Source: Oligoflexia bacterium
Lineage (GTDB): Bacteria; Bdellovibrionota; UBA1018; CAIPTA01
Length of the DNA stretch: 64,000 nt
NCBI GenBank assembly: GCA_903867855.1
Contig: CAIPTA010000064.1
Location: 4,965 to 68,964 of the forward strand
Direction of reading: 5' to 3'
Positions within the stretch are counted from its first letter, which is position 1. Every line of letters starts with the position of its first letter. The translations under genes were made by a program, and so were the position numbers. Under the pieces are notes generated by a model. It did no database searches. It saw only the letters and a list, made by a program, of their open reading frames with translations, and was not told the origin of the DNA. This document shows positions 1,819-14,501 of this stretch, in pieces.

Positions 1819-3060
1819 ATGAAAAATAAAGCGTCTTGTCCAAAATGTTCATTTGAATTTCCTATTGAAGCGGCTCTGGCTGATTCAGTCCGAAAAGATG
1901 TTTCTTTAGAGTTCGATCGCGAACGTCTAGCGATGGAGCAGAAACAGAAACAACGCGAGCAAGAATTTGCTAAGAGCCTTGAGCTCGCGAAACGCGAGAG
2001 TCGTCTTGAGTTTGAAAAGCAGCGAACTGAGTTGCTGGAGCAAGCAAAGCGCCAAGCCGCGCTTGATCAGAGTATGGTCATGCGTGACCAGTCCGCCGAG
2101 CTGGAGCTCATGAAAAATCATTTAGCAAATTACGCTGAAAGAGAAAGCGCATTTTTGAAAGAACGCAATGAGCTCGAGTTTAAGCGTAAATCCATTGATC
2201 TAGAGATCGCCAGGGGCCTAGATAATAAGGCTCAAGAGCTAATTAAGGAAACAGAAGCTCGGCTAGCATCTAGTTTCGAAATAAAACTCAAGGAGCGAGA
2301 GCTTCAAATTGAGCAGCTGATGGGGAAAGTGAAAGAAATGTCACGTACTGCCGGCCTTGGCTCTCAGCAATTACAGGGGGAGTCCCTTGAGGTGATCCTT
2401 GTGGAGGAAATGCAAACAGCTTTTCCCGACGACCTGATTCGCGACGTGAAAAAGGGGGCGAGGGGTGGAGACTATTGCCACATCGTTCGCACTCGATCCA
2501 GTGCTGAAGCTGGGAGTTTGCATATCGAAGCCAAGAATACCAAGGATTGGGGCGGTGACACTTGGATTGCCAAAGCAAAAGAAGATGCTCGGCAACATGG
2601 AGCTGATGTGGCTGTGATCGTTTCGGTCGCTTTGCCCAAAGAGATGATTGGCTTCGGAATGATCGATGGCGTGGTTGTGTGTTCGCCTGCATACGCTAAA
2701 CAAATTGTATCAGTATTGCGAATTAGCGTGCTTCAGCTGCATCGTCAAAAATGGGTGCAGGAAGGAATGAAAGACGCCAAACATGCAGTTTATGAATACT
2801 TCTCTGGCAAGGAATTTCGCCAGCGTTTTGAGCGGCTTGTGGAAGTGCAGTCTGAAATGCGTGATGGGCTTGAACGTGAAAAGCGCTTGGCAATGAAGTC
2901 CTTTGCTCAGAGAGAAAAACTTGTCGATTCGGTAATGGACAACCTTGTCGGGGTGTTTGGCGATCTTCAAGGTTTGATCGGTGAAAAGAACCTTCCAGAC
3001 ATTCCGCTTTTGGCGATCCCTATGGAATCCGAAGAAGAGGAAGAAGAAGTAACGGGCTGA
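1819..3060 (+). CDS. DUF2130-like protein: N-terminal CxxC knuckle, long coiled coil, C-terminal PD-(D/E)xK-like nuclease fold
   Basis: SCPKCSFEF at the N-terminus. E/K/R/Q-rich heptad-like region over ~aa 30-190. GGDYCH...GSLHIEAKNTKDWGGDTWIAKAKED matches the D...ExK pattern I recall for DUF2130. Acidic tail ESEEEEEEV. SD GGAGA lies 7 nt upstream. Confidence 0.7.
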   Translation: MKNKASCPKCSFEFPIEAALADSVRKDVSLEFDRERLAMEQKQKQREQEFAKSLELAKRESRLEFEKQRTELLEQAKRQAALDQSMVMRDQSAELELMKNHLANYAERESAFLKERNELEFKRKSIDLEIARGLDNKAQELIKETEARLASSFEIKLKERELQIEQLMGKVKEMSRTAGLGSQQLQGESLEVILVEEMQTAFPDDLIRDVKKGARGGDYCHIVRTRSSAEAGSLHIEAKNTKDWGGDTWIAKAKEDARQHGADVAVIVSVALPKEMIGFGMIDGVVVCSPAYAKQIVSVLRISVLQLHRQKWVQEGMKDAKHAVYEYFSGKEFRQRFERLVEVQSEMRDGLEREKRLAMKSFAQREKLVDSVMDNLVGVFGDLQGLIGEKNLPDIPLLAIPMESEEEEEEVTG

Positions 3061-3141: not shown

Positions 3142-3633
3142 ATGAGTTTGGCTAAAAAAGAAATCGAGTCACCTGCCCTTGAGCTCGCTGAGGCTTCAGC
3201 TGTGGAAACGGCTCATTGGAATCAAGCTGTTGCGAGGAACCGAGGAGCTGAGTGGCGTAGAAAATTGTTACTCGGCCGCCTGGAGGCTCAGTCGAATCCC
3301 AGCCATATTCGCATATCAAGAATGATGCAAAATTTTACTCAAAAAGATGTGGCACAATCTGTTGCTTTGAGTGTGACCACATATATGGCAATCGAAGCTG
3401 GCAATCGGTTTTGCACAGAAGAAAATGCCAAAAAGATTTGCGAGCTATTAGGAATTCCCATGGAAGGCGGCATGGTGAAATTTAGAAAGAAATATTTGGC
3501 AAGAAAAGTGCACGGCAATCTCCTTGTCGATTCAAAGAGTACTGAGGCAGTGGCTGCGCAAGTGGAGGTTGTTTGGAGCGATTCGAATATTCCAGCTGAT
3601 CAATGGAAAAAACAAAAGGTCTGGTTGATGTAG
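3142..3633 (+). CDS. XRE-family helix-turn-helix protein
   Basis: FTQKDVAQSVALSVTTYMAIEAGNR...AKKICELLGI is a classic HTH_3 pattern. The flanking ~65-aa N-terminal and ~50-aa C-terminal regions are unassigned. Confidence 0.7.
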   Translation: MSLAKKEIESPALELAEASAVETAHWNQAVARNRGAEWRRKLLLGRLEAQSNPSHIRISRMMQNFTQKDVAQSVALSVTTYMAIEAGNRFCTEENAKKICELLGIPMEGGMVKFRKKYLARKVHGNLLVDSKSTEAVAAQVEVVWSDSNIPADQWKKQKVWLM

Positions 3634-3699: not shown

Positions 3700-4623
3700 A
3701 TGAAATTTATGAGTCCAGAAACCATTGACGATCTTATCGGGCAGGAGCGGTTAAAGCCGCTTTTGGCTCGATATATCGCAGCAGCAAAGGAGGGCGGGCA
3801 ACCGTTTCCCGATTGTTTGCTAACGGGCCCTTCGGGGGATGGAAAGTCCACTGTGGCAGAAGTGATTTCTCGAGCCATGGGCGGAAATTATCTTCGAATT
3901 CGTTGCTCCTCGAAGCTTCGATTTACGCAGCTGTATGAGGAGGTTACCAAATTAAATTTTGGTGATGTTCTCCATCTCGACGAGGCTCAATCTGGTAGCC
4001 CTCAAGTATTAGAAGCTATTTACGATATCGTTGATAAGAGGATTGTTCCCTTTAGTGATGGAAAGCGAATTGACCCATTTCGGCCAATTTCCATATCCCG
4101 ATTCACGGTCTTAGTTTCTACCAATGAACCGGGAGCCTTAAAGGCCCCCCTACGAAACCGCCTAGTTGATCTTCAGCTCGAGCCCTATGACAGTAAGCAC
4201 ATGCACGATTTACTCATCGCTGGTGGTGCGCAGAGCGGAATTAACTTTTCGCAAGAAGCTGCAGAACTGCTCGTAAAAATTTCTCAGCTCTCACCCCGGA
4301 AGCTGATCAAAATTGTGGGAAGTGGTTTGATGGTGCTCAATCCGGGAGTAGTTGCATTTGAAAAACCTCACGTTGAAGAACTTATGAAGTTTTGGGGAAT
4401 CAATGAGATTGGGCTGGATTCCAATCAGCGAAGATATCTTAAGGCCCTTAAACATTTTGGCGGCCGAGCTCGTTTGATTGCTTTGACTGCATTCAGTGGT
4501 CTTCACCGCTCGGATATCACTGGGGAGATTGAACCTCAGCTGATGCGCATGGGGATCTTGACACGCGAGGAAGCTACTGCAATGCGGATCCTTCTCGAAA
4601 AGCCGGGAGTCTGCTATGGGTGA
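3700..4623 (+). CDS. RuvB-like AAA+ ATPase paralog with C-terminal winged-helix
   Basis: Walker A LLTGPSGDGKSTVA, Walker B VLHLDEAQ, sensor-1 LVSTN and Arg RNRL. The C-terminal GLDSNQRRYLKALKHFGG...EIEPQLMRMGILTR parallels RuvB domain III. No ruvA or ruvC is adjacent. Confidence 0.7.
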   Translation: MKFMSPETIDDLIGQERLKPLLARYIAAAKEGGQPFPDCLLTGPSGDGKSTVAEVISRAMGGNYLRIRCSSKLRFTQLYEEVTKLNFGDVLHLDEAQSGSPQVLEAIYDIVDKRIVPFSDGKRIDPFRPISISRFTVLVSTNEPGALKAPLRNRLVDLQLEPYDSKHMHDLLIAGGAQSGINFSQEAAELLVKISQLSPRKLIKIVGSGLMVLNPGVVAFEKPHVEELMKFWGINEIGLDSNQRRYLKALKHFGGRARLIALTAFSGLHRSDITGEIEPQLMRMGILTREEATAMRILLEKPGVCYG

Positions 4624-5632
4624 GATTTCATTTCCAATAGGACCAAGCCTTTCCGATGCAATTCGGCTGGCACTCCAAGCAAAACTTGCAGTTGGAGTGG
4701 TGGGCCCTCACGGAATTGGTAAAAGTGAATTGCTGGGCCAAGTGGCCGACGATCTTTCACTTGAATATATCGTGAGAGATTTAAGCTTGATGGAGCCAGT
4801 TGATCTTGTGGGGCTTCCAGTAATGAAGGGCAATAGCACAAAGTTTTTGCCCCCTTCTTTTTTACCTACTAGCGGCAGCGGGCTCCTTGTGATGGAGGAA
4901 TTGAATCGGGCACCTCGCCACGTAATTACACCTTGCCTTCAATTACTAACCGCTCGAACACTGAACGATTATAATTTGCCCGCGGATTGGCAGATTGCAG
5001 CCGCATGGAACGAGGGCGAAGAGTACCAAGTTTTTGAGCTTGATCCAGCAATGCGATCCCGATTTGTTATTCTCTATGCCTATGCCGATCCAAAGGAATG
5101 GATAAAGTGGGCGACCAGCCGCGGTGTTTCCAGCACGTTATTAAGCTTCATTGAAAACAGCCCCAAAGTTTTTTCTGATCCGAGCGCCAATCCTCGCGCT
5201 TGGTACAAAGTTTCTAAGCTATTGGAGGCATACGAAAAGAGTGAGTTTGCCAGCAAAGATAGTGTTCTTCTTGCCGCCGTTAGTGGTTGTGTGGGTGTGA
5301 CTTGGGCAAAATCATTTTTGAAATATTATTTCAAGCAAGAGAAGCCCTTGAAGGCCGCCGAAATTCTGACGGAATTTGACCAGCATCGGGCCAGTTTTCA
5401 ATTTTGGATCTCTCGTTGCCGTTTGGATTTGGCCAAAAGCTCCATGAAGAATTTGCAAAACCATCTTGAAAAACAATCGAATTTTGATGAGATGACAAAA
5501 GCAAAGGAACAGAGGGCGAACGTTGCCGCGTTCCTTTCTCTGCTTCCAGCAGACTTTCGTAAAGAATTCTCGCGTTGGGAAAAGAGCCGAGGCTATTCAA
5601 AAGCCAAGACGGGAATAAAAGATGCGATCTGA
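4616..5632 (+). CDS. MoxR-type AAA_5 ATPase
   Basis: Walker A VGPHGIGKSELL. Walker B and the AAA_5 signature LLVMEELNRAPRHVITPCLQLLTARTL. The start overlaps the upstream stop by 8 nt (ATGGGTGA). Confidence 0.8.
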   Translation: MGEISFPIGPSLSDAIRLALQAKLAVGVVGPHGIGKSELLGQVADDLSLEYIVRDLSLMEPVDLVGLPVMKGNSTKFLPPSFLPTSGSGLLVMEELNRAPRHVITPCLQLLTARTLNDYNLPADWQIAAAWNEGEEYQVFELDPAMRSRFVILYAYADPKEWIKWATSRGVSSTLLSFIENSPKVFSDPSANPRAWYKVSKLLEAYEKSEFASKDSVLLAAVSGCVGVTWAKSFLKYYFKQEKPLKAAEILTEFDQHRASFQFWISRCRLDLAKSSMKNLQNHLEKQSNFDEMTKAKEQRANVAAFLSLLPADFRKEFSRWEKSRGYSKAKTGIKDAI

Positions 5633-6794
5633 AAAACCAAAAGGCATTCTAAAGATTGCTCTTCAGCGACACGCAGAAAATTACCCTCTTCATGCCGGTT
5701 TGATCGGGTTAATGACGTGGGTCGAAAATGAACGAATTTCCACGTGCTGCGTTGGATACGATCGGGCCGGCCTTCTTTTTCAGTACAACCCAAAGTTTAC
5801 GGCAGAAATTAAGCTCTCGGAACTCGAGGGTGTGATTCATCATGAAATCAACCACGTGTTACTGGGCCATCTTGATAGCAAGGGGCCTCACGAAAATCCC
5901 ACTGCTATGATGTTGGCGGAGGAGATTACAGTAAATGAATGGGTCGCAGAGCCATTGCCGGGGCGCCCAATTCTCCTAAGTGATTTTCCAAAACTGAAGC
6001 CAAATGAGGACACTCTGACTCGATACGAACTCCTGAAGAAGGAAGATCTCTCATCCTATGAGCATCTTCTCAAAGAGCCCCACTTCCTTGTGCCTCTAGA
6101 GGGGCAAGATGCGGACTTCGCAAGAGCATTATTAAAGTCGGAAATCGCTGTAATTTTATCTGGGCCCCAAAGTGAGGCTCTTAATGATCTGCTAAGGCAA
6201 GTTTGGGGAGATCAATCGGCAGGGCTTAGTAGGCAGGTTTTGCGTGATAAAAAGCGTGGCACTGTGAATTGGATCTCTGTACTACGCCATTTCGTCGGTA
6301 GTTTGAATGCGCCAGCATACTGTGCAACTAGGCCTTCAAGAAGGTTGCCGGAGCTACTGGGCTTGGTTCCTGGCCGCCTAAATCGCCCTGGAAAAATTAG
6401 TTTGATGGCAGTTATCGACACGAGTGGCTCGATAGATGAGTTCGAGCTTGCAGCTATTGCCCGCGAACTAAATTCTTTAAAGAATGTAGCTGAAATGCTG
6501 ATCGTGGAATGCGACGCAGATGTGAAAAGAACATATCGTTTTCAGGGCGGTATCGAGAATGTCCTAGGAGGGGGAGGAACTGATTTTAGGCCAGCCCTTG
6601 AAAAAGAGTTTTTAGGAAAGCATCGCCCCGACCTAGTTGTTTATTTCACGGATGGCTATGGAGCCGCGCCAAAACATGCGCCTGCTGTGCCTGTGGTGTG
6701 GTGCCTCTCGGCGAATGGCCGAAAGCCTGCGACCTGGGGCCGGGTGATTAAGATGGCCAAATTAGTTGGCGACCCTGTGTGGGCGAACATTTAG
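5622..6794 (+). CDS. VWA-domain protein with N-terminal HExxH metallopeptidase-like domain (DUF2201-type)
   Basis: HHEINHVLLGH (HExxH) in the N-terminal half. Intact MIDAS DxSxS (AVIDTSGSI) followed by ...YFTDGYG in the C-terminal half. Overlaps the upstream ATPase gene by 11 nt. Confidence 0.8.
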   Translation: MRSEKPKGILKIALQRHAENYPLHAGLIGLMTWVENERISTCCVGYDRAGLLFQYNPKFTAEIKLSELEGVIHHEINHVLLGHLDSKGPHENPTAMMLAEEITVNEWVAEPLPGRPILLSDFPKLKPNEDTLTRYELLKKEDLSSYEHLLKEPHFLVPLEGQDADFARALLKSEIAVILSGPQSEALNDLLRQVWGDQSAGLSRQVLRDKKRGTVNWISVLRHFVGSLNAPAYCATRPSRRLPELLGLVPGRLNRPGKISLMAVIDTSGSIDEFELAAIARELNSLKNVAEMLIVECDADVKRTYRFQGGIENVLGGGGTDFRPALEKEFLGKHRPDLVVYFTDGYGAAPKHAPAVPVVWCLSANGRKPATWGRVIKMAKLVGDPVWANI

Positions 6795-7734: not shown

Positions 7735-7768
7735 AAAAAAAACCTCAGCCTTTGGCTGGGGTTTTTTT
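7735..7768. terminator. bidirectional rho-independent terminator
   Basis: A8 run (7735-7742), stem CCTCAGCC / GGCTGGGG (7743-7750 / 7754-7761, one G-U pair, 3-nt loop), then a T7 run (7762-7768). It lies between the convergent cassette and the VIT gene. Confidence 0.6.
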
Positions 7769-10947: not shown

Positions 10948-12006
10948 CTATTTTTTTAAAAACGATAGCACTTCGTCTGCCACGATCACGGAGCCCGCGC
11001 TTCCCCAATGAGTATCGTTGGGAAGATAAACATCCTTCGCGCCGCTTTGAATCGCATTTTTTAGCGGGAGATCGAGCCTGATCAAATGTAATTTTGGATC
11101 TTGAGCTATTTTCTCAACGCTATTGGGCATTCGATCGCTGGGAGCTAAGAAATCAGAGTACGCAGTACTTTTATCCGGAGCAATTATCAAAGCAAAATGA
11201 GTAAAAGAGTTGGATTCTACAGCCGCCTGAATCTGTAGAAGACGGCAATCTATCGCCTGCCAATCTGAGGGAGCCCAATCTTTTTTTAGAAAATCACCGT
11301 CGGTAAGTAAAATTTCAGAAGAACGGAGATTCGTAAATAGATCCGCTTTCGAAATTGGTAATTTTACGATGGTGCTTGGATCGCGATTTGTGATCTTTCG
11401 ATAGAGATTTTTCCACAAGTAATCGATGGTTTCTCCCGGTAAGTTATCGTGCCAGCCGGTTTTCGCCGCGCGCTTTTCTGAAACGGGCTCTAGATTTTTG
11501 GTCTTTAGCGAAAGCTGTAGTTTGGTTTTTAATTCAGGCTGGGTAGAGGGGCACTCCGATCCGATAGAGAAAAATTTATTTTTCAATTGGCGCTCTACAT
11601 ACTCGAGAATCACGAGTTTCGGCGGGTGACGCGTGAAAGTTTCCTTCTGTAAAAATTCTTCAAGTTTCGGAGGCTCCACATTGAATACTCCGATTTTGGC
11701 GTCGATTTTTTGTGCCAGAAAATCTGTCCAAAAACCACCATACTGTGTTTGGCGATCGGGAGAAGTGCGAAGGCTAAAAGAATCGCCTAGGATAATGATA
11801 TCGTAGCTCCCGCCCTCCACGCCCTCTTCCGCTAGAGAAGCGGTAAACTTTTTTTGTAGACCATTCCAACCGAAATCATTTTCGGAGTAACCACCAACCC
11901 TCGTCATATCGCCCTTCAATTCCTGGAGTCTCCAGCCGAAGCTGAGCACTAGCAACGCAAGCAATAGTAGGGGCGAGAGTATGAAAGCGATATACTTACG
12001 ATGCAT
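10948..12006 (-). CDS. periplasmic SGNH/AlgJ-AlgX/DHHW-like acyl-transfer partner of MBOAT
   Basis: Signal anchor MHRKYIAFILSPLLLLALLVL, GDS block IIILGDSFS, and C-terminal LPNDTHWGSAG (DxHW). ATG at 12006, 8 nt after the MBOAT stop. Confidence 0.7.
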   Translation of the reverse strand: MHRKYIAFILSPLLLLALLVLSFGWRLQELKGDMTRVGGYSENDFGWNGLQKKFTASLAEEGVEGGSYDIIILGDSFSLRTSPDRQTQYGGFWTDFLAQKIDAKIGVFNVEPPKLEEFLQKETFTRHPPKLVILEYVERQLKNKFFSIGSECPSTQPELKTKLQLSLKTKNLEPVSEKRAAKTGWHDNLPGETIDYLWKNLYRKITNRDPSTIVKLPISKADLFTNLRSSEILLTDGDFLKKDWAPSDWQAIDCRLLQIQAAVESNSFTHFALIIAPDKSTAYSDFLAPSDRMPNSVEKIAQDPKLHLIRLDLPLKNAIQSGAKDVYLPNDTHWGSAGSVIVADEVLSFLKK

Positions 12007-12014
12007 AGGGGCTC

Positions 12015-13484
12015 CTAAAACTGAAAGTATAAAAACTGGCTGATACGAGTCATGTAATAAAGAGAAACTAGGAGCGCGCTGAGAGTGGGAATGGCCCAAA
12101 GGAGATTGGCGCGCCAGCACTTTTCCATCACTTCATGTAGGTTCGGTAGAAAGAGTGCGATCGCCATTAGCCCGATAATCCAACGTAAAGCTTCTGGTAG
12201 GGTGGCATGCTCACCGAGAGAGATATCGGCGAAGCGGACCCCAAGGCTTGCTAGGCGATCCAGGTGAGTGTGGAGATGGGCGCCAATGGCATTAGGAAGC
12301 ACGATGCCCTGCATGCCAAACATGGTGCGCAGTATGTGAAGCGCAGTATGCATATCCGCAGCGCGAAAAAATACCCAGGCGATGAGAACAGCGAAAAAGG
12401 TGAGAGCCCAAGAAATAAAATGATTGAAGGAGATTTTTAGATACTGAGCGGCATGATTGATCATCAAGTAGCAGCCGTGCAAAAGGCCCCACACTAAGAA
12501 GGTCCAACCGGCGCCATGCCAAAGCCCACCGAGAGCCATAGTGATGATGAGATTGGTATAGCGACTCATTTGTCCCTTACGATTTCCTCCCAAGGGAACA
12601 TAGAGATAATCGCGTAGGAAGCGGGAAAGAGTCATATGCCAGCGCCGCCAAAACTCCACGATGCTTTTCGATTTATAGGGAGAATCAAAGTTGGCAGGCA
12701 AATTGATATTGAACATGCGGGAGATGCCAATGGCCATATCGGTATAGCCGGAAAAATCGAAGTAGATTTGCATGGCATAGGCGAGCGCTCCCACCCAAGC
12801 AGTAAGAAAGTTTAGCTGGCTCGCATTCGTTTGCGAGAATGCATAATCAGCATAGCGACTAATCGAATCAGCGAGCATCACTTTCTTGAAAAGACCAAAA
12901 CTAAATATAGTGATACCAGTGGAGATCGATTCGGCTCGAAGCGTATACGTATCTTTGCGAGCAAACTGCGGCATCATCTCTGCGTGGTGCAGGATGGGCC
13001 CGGCGATCAAATGGGGAAAATAAGTAACAAATAAGAGATAGTGGGGGAAATAGGCTTCCTCGGCTTTGCCGCGGGCGGTATCTACTAAGAAGGCAATCTG
13101 AGTAAAAGTATAAAATGAAATTCCGATCGGCAGAGCGATATTCTGCCACGCGAACTGCATGCCCGTTACGAAGGCAAAGCTATGCACGAAAAAATTAACA
13201 TACTTAAAGTAGCCAAGCGTAAGAAGGTTTAGGGTAACGGCCAGAGCTAAGAGCGGCTTTGAGTTTGGCCCTTGCTTGCGGAGATGCATCCCAAAAGAAT
13301 AATTAACAAGAATCGACAATAGTAAAATGGAGGTAAAATGCCAATCCCACCAAGAGTAAAATAGAAGCGAGGCGAGCCCAAGCCAGAGAGCGGCGAGTTT
13401 TTGGCTCACACGAGCGATGAAGAAAAAACCGAAAAATGCGATCGGCAAAAAGACAAATAAGAAGGAATAAGAGTTAAACAGCAT
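12015..13484 (-). CDS. MBOAT-family membrane O-acyltransferase (AlgI/DltB-like)
   Basis: SISFYTFTQIAFLVD, EFWRRWHMTLSRFLRDYLYVPLGGNR and GLWHGAGW, including the invariant His. Confidence 0.9.
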   Translation of the reverse strand: MLFNSYSFLFVFLPIAFFGFFFIARVSQKLAALWLGLASLLFYSWWDWHFTSILLLSILVNYSFGMHLRKQGPNSKPLLALAVTLNLLTLGYFKYVNFFVHSFAFVTGMQFAWQNIALPIGISFYTFTQIAFLVDTARGKAEEAYFPHYLLFVTYFPHLIAGPILHHAEMMPQFARKDTYTLRAESISTGITIFSFGLFKKVMLADSISRYADYAFSQTNASQLNFLTAWVGALAYAMQIYFDFSGYTDMAIGISRMFNINLPANFDSPYKSKSIVEFWRRWHMTLSRFLRDYLYVPLGGNRKGQMSRYTNLIITMALGGLWHGAGWTFLVWGLLHGCYLMINHAAQYLKISFNHFISWALTFFAVLIAWVFFRAADMHTALHILRTMFGMQGIVLPNAIGAHLHTHLDRLASLGVRFADISLGEHATLPEALRWIIGLMAIALFLPNLHEVMEKCWRANLLWAIPTLSALLVSLYYMTRISQFLYFQF

Positions 13485-14501
13485 CTATGATCGTGCAAAT
13501 CCAAAATACAAACCTAGGATCATGCGACTCCCCACCTTAAAGGCGCGGCTATTATTCACATTTCCTCCTTTACTCTGGCCCACTCGCGGATAAAAAGTAA
13601 TAGGGCATTCCACTAGCACTTCACTTCGGGAAAGGGCTGTATCGAGAAAGTGGGCATTGAACTCTAAATTAACTCGCGGATCGAGGTAGGGCATAATCCG
13701 CTCCAGTGCTTCCCGACGGCAGAGCTTATAAGTAGTGCCCACATCAGTGAATGTGCCTTTACCGAGATGTTTAATCTCTAGCAGCTTGCCCACGAAAAAA
13801 TTCCCATAGTACATGAAGGTGCTTAGTTGAGTGTGATTGGCGCGGAGTTGCTCCACGATGCGCGTACCATTCACAATGGTGGCGTGAGGAATATAGGCGA
13901 GGAATTTATCGATGTCATGGGCACGGAAGGTCATATCGCCTTCGCACAAAAGGATTAGATCTGTATCTTTTCGATTCAAACCCTCTTGGAAGCAGCGGTA
14001 AACGCATTGACCGTAGCCAGGCTTTAGTTCATTGAATACGATGGCGCCGGCTTTTTCTGCGGCAGCAAAAGTGCCATCACTGCTATTATTACTCACCACG
14101 ATCACATTTTTTACAGCAGGATGATTTTTAAAATCCTGTACTGCGGGACCAATGCTCTCCTCATCGTTATAGGCGGTGAGCACAACGGTGAGCTCTCGCG
14201 ATTTAGGAATTTCATAGGCGACGTTACGCCCCGTTCTTTTGATGGGGTAGAGAATGAAAAGGTCAAAAGCGCAAAGCAGGCCGCCAAAGATGAGCAGAAA
14301 ACTACTGATGGCCAAGATCGCATTCGGAATGGTGCTGCTTAAGTGAAACGCAGGGAATGCCGTGAACATTTCTAGGAGATGTAAAAATATTCCTGCCAAG
14401 AGCAGCGCAAAGCCATAGAGAAAGGGAGTCCAGTTCGTGTGTTTTTTATTCTTATGTAAGGAGATACCATTCTCCACATTTTCCGTTAGTGTTTGGCTCA
14501 T
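13485..14501 (-). CDS. family-2 glycosyltransferase with N-terminal TM helices
   Basis: LTVVLTAYNDEESIGPAV...VIVVSNNSSDGT...EGDMTF (GT-A DxD-like). It directly abuts the MBOAT gene. Confidence 0.85.
   Translation of the reverse strand: MSQTLTENVENGISLHKNKKHTNWTPFLYGFALLLAGIFLHLLEMFTAFPAFHLSSTIPNAILAISSFLLIFGGLLCAFDLFILYPIKRTGRNVAYEIPKSRELTVVLTAYNDEESIGPAVQDFKNHPAVKNVIVVSNNSSDGTFAAAEKAGAIVFNELKPGYGQCVYRCFQEGLNRKDTDLILLCEGDMTFRAHDIDKFLAYIPHATIVNGTRIVEQLRANHTQLSTFMYYGNFFVGKLLEIKHLGKGTFTDVGTTYKLCRREALERIMPYLDPRVNLEFNAHFLDTALSRSEVLVECPITFYPRVGQSKGGNVNNSRAFKVGSRMILGLYFGFARS

Follow-up and report, generated by a model that had tools for sequence, protein, structure and literature searches.

To our knowledge, RuvB, the textbook motor of DNA repair, acts only together with RuvA, and the conflict systems built on MoxR and von Willebrand factor A (vWA or VWA) proteins are poorly understood, none of them having a demonstrated mechanism. 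In the MoxR-vWA ternary systems one component is displaced within a preserved operon, and the third position is taken by VMAP, iSTAND, FtsH or a beta-propeller protein (PMC7159879, PMC12839542). A pair consisting of a MoxR protein and a metallopeptidase-vWA protein has been described in jumbo phages, where a role in the assembly of virions or other complexes was proposed (Iyer et al. 2021, PMC7824862); the pair as such is already known from Pfam, PHROGs and that report. Here we analyze a stretch of 64,000 nucleotides (nt) from an Oligoflexia bacterium (assembly GCA_903867855.1, contig CAIPTA010000064.1, positions 4,965 to 68,964 of the forward strand), which is referred to at its full length as the window. 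It harbors three overlapping open reading frames (ORFs) which encode a RuvB-like AAA+ ATPase (gene 1), a MoxR-like AAA_5 ATPase (gene 2), and a protein combining a predicted metallopeptidase with a VWA domain (gene 3). The features of this triad, including the metal-ion-dependent adhesion site (MIDAS) of gene 3, are listed with the basis of their assignment (AF2, AlphaFold2 model; aa, amino acids).

3700-4623, plus strand: gene 1, RuvB-like AAA+ ATPase of 307 aa with large ATPase domain, lid and C-terminal winged-helix head (Pfam, AF2, Foldseek)
3826-3849, plus strand: Walker A of gene 1, GPSGDGKS, residues 43-50 (motif position)
3973-3987, plus strand: Walker B of gene 1, HLDEA, residues 92-96 (motif position)
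4117-4164, plus strand: sensor 1 STNEPG (residues 140-145) and arginine finger LRNRL (residues 151-155) of gene 1 (motif positions)
4291-4302, plus strand: sensor 2 of gene 1, SPRK, residues 198-201 (motif position)
4405-4599, plus strand: winged-helix head domain of gene 1 (Pfam RuvB_C; BLASTP against E. coli RuvB)
4616-4623, plus strand: overlap of gene 1 and gene 2, 8 nt (gene 1 stop versus gene 2 start)
4616-5632, plus strand: gene 2, MoxR-like AAA_5 ATPase of 338 aa with a helical C-terminal extension of about 180 aa (Pfam AAA_5, phrog_1297)
4703-4726, plus strand: Walker A of gene 2, GPHGIGKS, residues 30-37 (motif position)
4889-4912, plus strand: Walker B region of gene 2, VMEELNRA, residues 92-99, with EE for DE (motif position)
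5622-5632, plus strand: overlap of gene 2 and gene 3, 11 nt (gene 2 stop versus gene 3 start)
5622-6794, plus strand: gene 3, zincin-like metallopeptidase plus VWA protein of 390 aa, DUF2201_N plus DUF2201 (Pfam, phrog_1314, AF2)
5838-5855, plus strand: HHEINH, putative zinc-binding and catalytic motif of gene 3, residues 73-78 (motif position, conservation)
6417-6431, plus strand: MIDAS of gene 3, DTSGS, residues 266-270, completed by T320 and D344 (motif position, conservation)

The triad is one translationally coupled, co-conserved and co-evolving unit. The initial annotation had drawn the coupling from the two overlaps, both of which are borne out by the ORFs. The start codon of gene 2 is located within ...TATGGGTGA of gene 1, and the Shine-Dalgarno-like sequences GGGAG and GGGAA are present about 6 nt 5' of the two internal ATGs of genes 2 and 3. 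No terminator-like hairpin was found between the triad genes in the window.

Conservation of the arrangement was examined from both directions. In the forward test an alignment of gene 3 homologs was scanned against one genome per GTDB species, which yielded 38 loci, and triads were called at these loci by ORF calling, phmmer and BLAST clustering. At 24 of the 29 informative genome loci, i.e., those with a full-length, close match, the MoxR-like gene is immediately preceded by a RuvB-like gene, and these loci cover at least seven phyla. The hosts belong to Planctomycetota, Verrucomicrobiota, Myxococcota, Lentisphaerota, Raymondbacteria, Ca. Kuenenia and proteobacteria (Pseudomonadota), and further to Acidobacteriota (Blastocatellia and Thermoanaerobaculia). 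The eight most distant loci of the forward test, from Gammaproteobacteria, Veillonella and Bacteroidota, are devoid of a RuvB-like gene. All six metagenome contexts that were picked via gene 3 contain it. In the reverse test, five of five contigs selected by RuvB-like similarity alone carry AAA_5 and DUF2201 genes directly downstream. The triad is hence conserved in both tests, and the possibility raised at the outset that the three genes are not co-conserved did not materialize. The arrangement is far beyond chance; chance adjacency of the three genes was rejected, as the same order recurs across loci.

Close coupling is a property of the family as well. The RuvB-like and MoxR-like genes overlap in 18 of 29 triads and are no more than 20 nt apart in 24 of them, and the MoxR-like and VWA genes overlap in 19 of 29. 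When 24 triads were compared, the pairwise identities of one protein correlated with those of the others (r values of 0.72-0.82). In the same set the RuvB-like protein shows a mean pairwise identity of 34% versus 42% and 40% for its partners, and its identity is below that of the MoxR-like protein in 93% of pairs; it is the fastest evolving of the three.

Gene 1 encodes a RuvB-fold paralog in which the ATPase residues are conserved and a winged helix is present, as the initial annotation had maintained. Pfam detects RuvB_N (1.5e-18) and the RuvB_C winged helix (4.9e-8; residues 236-290). When the AlphaFold2 model, which has a predicted local distance difference test (pLDDT) score of 95, was compared with the PDB by Foldseek, the top 45 matches were all RuvB (template modeling scores of 0.80-0.86, E values down to 2e-24), followed by clamp loaders. 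In an alignment of 62 members of the RuvB-like family G48, K49 and R154 are invariant, D94, E95, T141, P199 and R200 are conserved in at least 90% of the sequences, and the 'R..T..G' wing of the winged helix likewise falls into one of these two categories. Identity to E. coli RuvB amounts to 27% over 297 residues, and in the BLASTP alignment the arginines of the gene 1 sequences HRSD and GILTR match those of ERET and GFLQR. Given that head-domain arginines of RuvB contact DNA (PMC9477746), the aligned arginines of gene 1 are putative counterparts of these DNA-contacting residues.

Judged by its sequence and genomic setting, gene 1 does not encode the Holliday-junction motor. The initial annotation had concluded this from the lack of nearby ruvA and ruvC genes, and several lines of evidence now agree with it. 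Gene 1 scores 118 bits against the NCBIfam RuvB model NF000868 (cut-off 282) and 101.3 bits against TIGR00635 (cut-off 299.05). A neighbor-joining tree of 188 sequences with 100 bootstraps provides the comparison with bona fide RuvB. All 33 triad-linked proteins separate from the eight canonical RuvB sequences, including that of E. coli, in 100 of 100 bootstraps; from the outgroup as a whole (30 sequences, other paralogs among them) they separate in 53 of 100. With E. coli RuvA and RuvC as phmmer queries, no homolog was found in the window or in any of the fetched loci, which together comprise 8659 ORFs; a RuvA or RuvC Pfam domain is missing from the 11 annotated contexts, and no second RuvB was found in the 64-kb window.

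The extent of the RuvB-like family was estimated with an exhaustive HMMER search based on a 4-sequence profile. This search returned 1415 matches below 1e-30 among 1.84 billion representatives, a count in which true RuvB is included. The best 150 matches are mostly 300-340 aa long and have a Walker A of the GPSGxGKT rather than the GPPGLGKT type. Word-indexed homolog searches returned only 6 matches with gene 1 alone and 13 with a 62-sequence profile because the candidate list was flooded by true RuvB. In source databases the relatives are named 'Holliday junction DNA helicase RuvB'. Since paralogs are labeled RuvB in this way, apparent ruvB copy numbers are inflated in Planctomycetota, Myxococcota, Verrucomicrobiota and Acidobacteriota.

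Gene 2 matches Pfam AAA_5 (4.8e-7) and the phrog_1297 ATPase family (2.1e-50), and no relative was found in the PDB by sequence. The motifs quoted in the initial annotation are all present in the three proteins at their given places. Its view that all catalytic signatures are intact stands for the RuvB-like and VWA motifs, which are conserved, but not for the Walker B of the MoxR-like protein, which reads EE instead of DE. The EE version is kept in nearly all triad-linked MoxR-like proteins, while DE occurs in distant cellular pairs without a RuvB-like gene. Triad-linked homologs in loci L004-L034 have in common a Walker A of the form G.HG[VI]GKS and a Walker B of the form EE(L/I)NR; by contrast, distant DUF2201-associated MoxR proteins that have no RuvB-like neighbor combine GPPGxGKS with DE.

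Gene 3 is composed of DUF2201_N, described as a 'putative metallopeptidase' (E value of 1.5e-9; 38.3 bits versus a Pfam gathering threshold of 23.2), and of the VWA-like DUF2201 (E value of 4e-20; 72.6 bits versus 26.4), and it matches phrog_1314 with 1.8e-35. Among 62 gene 3 homologs H74, E75, H78, H83, E101, N105 and E106 of the peptidase domain are invariant, and so are D266, S268, S270, T320 and D344 of the MIDAS. Additional motifs are GGGTD (residues 317-321) and YFTDG (residues 341-345), and a segment of the form RPxRRxP at residues 237-243 is conserved. In the AlphaFold2 model (pLDDT 86) a disordered linker (residues 199-213) connects two domains. The C-terminal half of the protein matches VWA folds in Foldseek, namely those of CLCA1, integrin I domains, ArnB and NorD. 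For the N-terminal half there is no relative of solved structure; the whole-chain Foldseek search matched the VWA half only, and no sequence homolog was found in the PDB. The combination of a VWA domain with an HExxH domain, to which the initial annotation drew attention, is by itself nothing unusual; this is the standard DUF2201_N plus DUF2201 architecture, which has thousands of members and has been noted in phages (PMC7824862). At least 2938 homologs of gene 3 were found. A phage homolog, from Ruegeria phage vB_RpoP-V13 (L148, 5586-8152), is annotated as 'HNH endonuclease' in RefSeq and PHROGs. This label on PHROG 1314 and phage DUF2201 proteins is probably a propagated mis-annotation.

The mobile-element and defense-island context of the triad, which the initial annotation had overlooked, is the main clue to its biological role. 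On the 96-kb parent contig the window triad is located downstream of a sigma-54 activator gene and a type I restriction-modification system. Triads elsewhere adjoin genes for Dcm, EcoRII and Vsr; for PglZ and BrxL of bacteriophage exclusion (BREX) systems; for PDDEXK_4, ParB_N and HsdR; for WYL-WCX, ParB_N and a 2045-aa helicase; or for HipAB, WYL-WCX and AddAB-like proteins. A PADLOC scan of the first and second neighbors on either side of the triads in the genome loci (96 genes) yielded matches to Aga_REase, which is associated with prokaryotic Argonaute (5.5e-130), and to PD-T4-6, JetD, mad6, MkoA, AbiJ, a C5-methyltransferase and WYL proteins. Pfam matches among the genome-locus neighbors include integrases, IS1595 transposases, MazF and DUF4365. 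Beyond the three triad genes themselves, no neighbor is conserved across the triad loci.

Several triads belong to a recurrent mobile-element backbone with the gene order integrase, an orphan of about 775 aa, HTH_17, triad, small ORF, D5_N/DUF5906 primase-helicase, and ParB. It is present in L013 and L019 and in part in L005 and L144. The ~775-aa orphan is 28-45% identical between loci and has no match in Pfam or the PDB. Loci L004 and L028 have in common another order, in which the triad is followed by a 521-aa orphan and an integrase. The backbone extends over 1338-13995 in L013 and over 3954-12186 in L144, and its HTH_17 gene is excisionase-like. When relatives of the ~775-aa backbone protein were sought in metagenomes, only the protein itself and one 3-kb contig were retrieved; no relatives of the D5 primase were found among viral contigs. 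In IMG/VR there are 392 relatives of gene 3. The RuvB-like gene accompanies the DUF2201 gene in one of the best 80 of these loci (L059), where a helicase-like gene is located upstream and a primase gene downstream of the triad; the other 79 are without it, and there the two genes of the pair are often 1-4 kb apart. A search of viral contigs with a 4-sequence RuvB-like alignment found only unlinked RuvB-like genes, and searches of plasmids found only distant dyads plus canonical ruvB on chromids.

Taking these data into account, our favored yet tentative interpretation is that the triad is a mobile operon and a variant, based on RuvB, of the MoxR-vWA ternary conflict systems, with a role in conflict or defense. 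In such a system the ring of the RuvB paralog would be loaded on, or track along, double-stranded DNA via its winged-helix head, with ATP-driven motion or sensing of the DNA state. The DNA targeted in this way may be foreign, either entering the cell or replicating, or may belong to the element itself, and the ring would serve as the sensing and targeting arm. The MIDAS of the VWA protein might then grip an acidic peptide of a partner, which could be either the RuvB-like ring or a DNA-bound target, and the MoxR-like hexamer would use ATP to remodel the assembly held in this way. Remodeling would license the VWA-fused zincin to cut a protein, making the switch irreversible, and this cut could block the invader, abort the infection, or control the mobile element. 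Each step appears plausible in the light of how the MoxR-VWA pairs NorQD, CbbQO and RavA-ViaA, as well as RuvB, are known to behave. The ATP-driven, possibly DNA-associated proteolytic switch suggested in the initial annotation may reasonably be inferred. A more specific proposal, in which we have less confidence, is that the triad constitutes an undescribed form of immunity against phages or plasmids, where a RuvB-family motor free of RuvA and RuvC senses nucleic acid and licenses a zinc protease controlled by MoxR and VWA proteins. If true, this would be the first recruitment of the Holliday-junction motor fold for immunity, and it would define a fifth type among the MoxR-vWA ternary systems.

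A number of observations weigh against a RuvB-based conflict system. The defense genes beside the triads are instances and not an enrichment measured against background. In several loci the triad is embedded in the part of an integrative element or viral contig that serves replication, and its conservation goes together with that of the backbone; such a position is compatible with a replication role no less than with cargo. The ATPase activity of gene 2 is not certain because its Walker B is EE and does not conform to hhhhDE. The peptidase competence of gene 3 is predicted from motif conservation, as there is no solved homolog. A common clade of the triad MoxR and vWA proteins with those of the ternary systems is not established; gene 2 gives no match to PF20030 (bpMoxR) in Pfam, and its homolog in L048 gives a weak one. 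In PADLOC-DB v2.0.0 genes 2 and 3 have no match, and gene 1 matches only generic ATPase models with an E value of about 2e-3. Lastly, it is the anatomy of the triad that is shown, and a complex of its products, their contact with DNA, the cleavage of a protein, the identity of that protein and the consequence for the biology are inferred; a physical interaction is supported neither by experiment nor by complex prediction.

The strongest competitor of a conflict operon is the view that the triad is part of a module by which integrative elements and some viruses replicate or become established. Here the RuvB-like motor would work on the DNA of the element during initiation or in the processing of forks or junctions; the pair of MoxR and VWA-peptidase proteins would license replication by remodeling or cleaving a protein of the host or the element, for example a repressor or a replisome factor; and the copy in the window would be a remnant of such an element or have been captured from one. 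We consider this reading somewhat less probable than a conflict operon; a number of observations speak in its favor. The integrase-to-ParB backbone and the order common to L004 and L028 place the triad beside integration and replication genes, and L059, the sole triad contig among the best 80 IMG/VR loci, carries helicase-like and primase genes. In N4-like phages the dyad is flanked by the RNA polymerase gene on one side and by genes of nucleotide metabolism or repair on the other, rather than being placed with the structural genes. Moreover, two divergent triad copies are present on different contigs in each of three metagenome-assembled genomes (L005 and L017, L009 and L018, L011 and L034). 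However, the triad also occurs alone without any replication gene, beside restriction-modification, BREX and toxin-antitoxin genes, and the RuvB-like gene is missing from nearly all of the best viral DUF2201 loci. Position alone is no proof of a replication role because mobile elements routinely carry defense cargo at fixed hotspots.

By comparison, it is improbable that the three proteins act as a chaperone-protease in the assembly of a virion or another large complex, as suggested for the jumbo-phage pair, with the RuvB-like protein as an accessory. The matches of genes 2 and 3 to phrog_1297 and phrog_1314, structural matches in many phages in BFVD, and the proposal made for the jumbo-phage pair (PMC7824862) are compatible with this idea. 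Yet neither the surroundings of the window triad nor the triad loci that were examined contain genes for virion structure or packaging, and a prophage structural module was likewise rejected. The N4-like pair lies in an early or middle DNA-metabolism region, and the phage pairs are without a RuvB-like gene.

Still less probable is a classical MoxR-VWA chaperone of the NorQD, CbbQO or RavA-ViaA type that serves in metallo-cofactor insertion or maturation of a housekeeping enzyme. The generic pairing of a MoxR protein with a VWA/MIDAS protein is indeed present in the triad, and for NorQD the mechanism of such a pair is known (PMC9976466, PMC13036017). However, no conserved client enzyme gene adjoins the triad, of which the three genes alone are conserved; its distribution is patchy and mobile, and these chaperones contain no equivalent of the fused peptidase or of the RuvB-like partner. 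Finally, it is most improbable that gene 1 is the ruvB of the cell, catalyzes branch migration at Holliday junctions and adjoins the MoxR gene only incidentally, since in spite of the database names and the full-length similarity and fold this identity was rejected on the sub-cut-off scores, the tree, the lack of RuvA and RuvC matches in the window and loci, and the tight, conserved linkage to the MoxR and VWA genes.

Two further features flank the triad in the window.

3142-3633, plus strand: XRE-family helix-turn-helix (HTH) gene, 66 nt upstream of the triad (Pfam HTH_19/HTH_3)
7736-7768, no strand assigned: strongest terminator-like hairpin in the region, 15 pairs, 3' of a gene for a 186-aa orphan

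The XRE HTH gene is a possible local regulator that stands outside the conserved module. The orphan ORF (6913/6946-7506; 186-197 aa) is located directly 3' of the triad and ahead of the hairpin. It has no match in Pfam, PHROG, NCBIfam, PADLOC or the PDB and no homolog among the fetched loci. The transcription unit may extend to 7736-7768 because the strongest hairpin follows this orphan. Farther upstream, a DUF2130 protein whose N-terminus is a long coiled coil is encoded at 1819-3060 (Pfam 2.6e-47) and a 100-aa orphan at 1481-1783; together with the XRE gene they lie between the sigma-54 activator and type I restriction-modification genes and the triad, and the three may form a separate small module of the same island. 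The HTH, DUF2130, 100-aa and 186-aa neighbors were rejected as extra components of the triad, none of them being conserved beside other triads. On the minus strand of the window (10948-14501), genes for ALGX-like, MBOAT and family-2 glycosyltransferase proteins are arranged in a row according to Pfam annotation of the parent contig. They look like a polysaccharide O-acetylation cluster with no relation to the triad.

Departures from the three-gene scheme were encountered as well. A variant triad in L143 (7484-11203) has a 201-aa ORF between the RuvB-like and MoxR-like genes and a gene for an N6/N4 DNA methyltransferase directly upstream; many small ORFs, a type IB topoisomerase gene and a NusG-like gene follow downstream, a phage- or element-like setting. 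In DUF2201 dyads without a RuvB-like gene other proteins are coupled to the pair: leucine-rich repeat proteins on a Chondrinema plasmid (L140, 6899-13572), a HEAT/LRV-repeat protein in L041 (971-6295), and a 592-aa orphan, the stop of which abuts the MoxR start, on a Sphaerotilus plasmid (L141, 3865-8020), where the dyad is also neighbored by Sir2 and DUF262 genes. These swaps of the third position parallel those described for the MoxR-vWA ternary systems. Other RuvB paralogs (library proteins P0211, P0242, P0275, P0229, P0210 and P0259) are fusions that carry either an XkdF-type serine peptidase (Peptidase_S78_2) at the C-terminus or an HNH nuclease at the N-terminus. Because such fusions exist, RuvB-like cores appear to be repeatedly coupled to effector enzymes outside RuvABC.

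A large, fast-evolving and mobile family of RuvB paralogs that is tied to a chaperone-protease pair would amount to a second, unrelated career for the motor. In addition, the very large DUF2201 family, with thousands of proteins and common in phages, would gain a testable functional context.

Among the known systems, MoxR-VWA chaperones such as NorQ/NorD, CbbQ/CbbO and RavA/ViaA resemble the triad in combining a MoxR hexamer with a VWA adaptor whose MIDAS engages the client. Unlike the triad, they adjoin the operon of a client enzyme and contain neither a peptidase domain nor a RuvB-like partner. BrxL of type 1 BREX sets a precedent from a defense system, in which a DNA-binding ring AAA+ ATPase is combined with a peptidase-type, Lon-protease-like domain (PMC12839542). 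It differs in that an MCM-family ATPase and an inactive Lon domain are combined in one polypeptide without MoxR or VWA proteins, and its homology with the triad is limited to the AAA+ core.

The RuvAB motor is related to the triad through gene 1, with which RuvB has in common the three-domain fold, Walker A and B motifs, sensors, arginine finger, and a head with aligned arginines, as well as a presensor-1 hairpin of similar length. By contrast, gene 1 stays below the equivalog cut-offs, belongs to a separate clade without a RuvA or RuvC partner, and is instead associated with MoxR and VWA-peptidase proteins. The hairpin by which RuvB binds RuvA is the most variable region of the RuvB-like protein, as seen for the presensor-1 hairpin across 24 triads. 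The phage pair of MoxR and metallopeptidase-vWA proteins (PHROG 1297/1314; jumbo and N4-like phages) constitutes a homologous dyad with the same domain architecture, but it is only 23-30% identical to the triad proteins, and a RuvB-like gene is missing from 79 of the best 80 loci.

The ternary systems of Kaur, Burroughs, Iyer and Aravind (2020; PMC7159879) come closest. Like the triad, they unite in one operon a MoxR-class AAA+ ATPase, a vWA protein with MIDAS, and a conserved third gene. In both cases the vWA protein carries a fused effector, frequently a peptidase, and the FtsH type likewise contains a second AAA+ ATPase. The ternary systems are mobile, vary in the third component, and are enriched in Planctomycetota, Verrucomicrobiota, Myxococcota and similar phyla, and the triad appears to resemble them in these respects. 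The differences are that the third component of the triad is a RuvB paralog, which is outside the four published types (PMC7159879), and that its zincin is N-terminal on the vWA protein, as is characteristic of the DUF2201 architecture, while the ternary systems have a C-terminal effector array. No description of a RuvB-like/MoxR/VWA-peptidase triad was found in the searchable literature. As dyad and ternary systems are known, whereas the RuvB-like partner is undescribed there and in PADLOC, it is this partner that represents the novelty, and the triad would add a DNA-motor-based class to the MoxR-vWA conflict systems.

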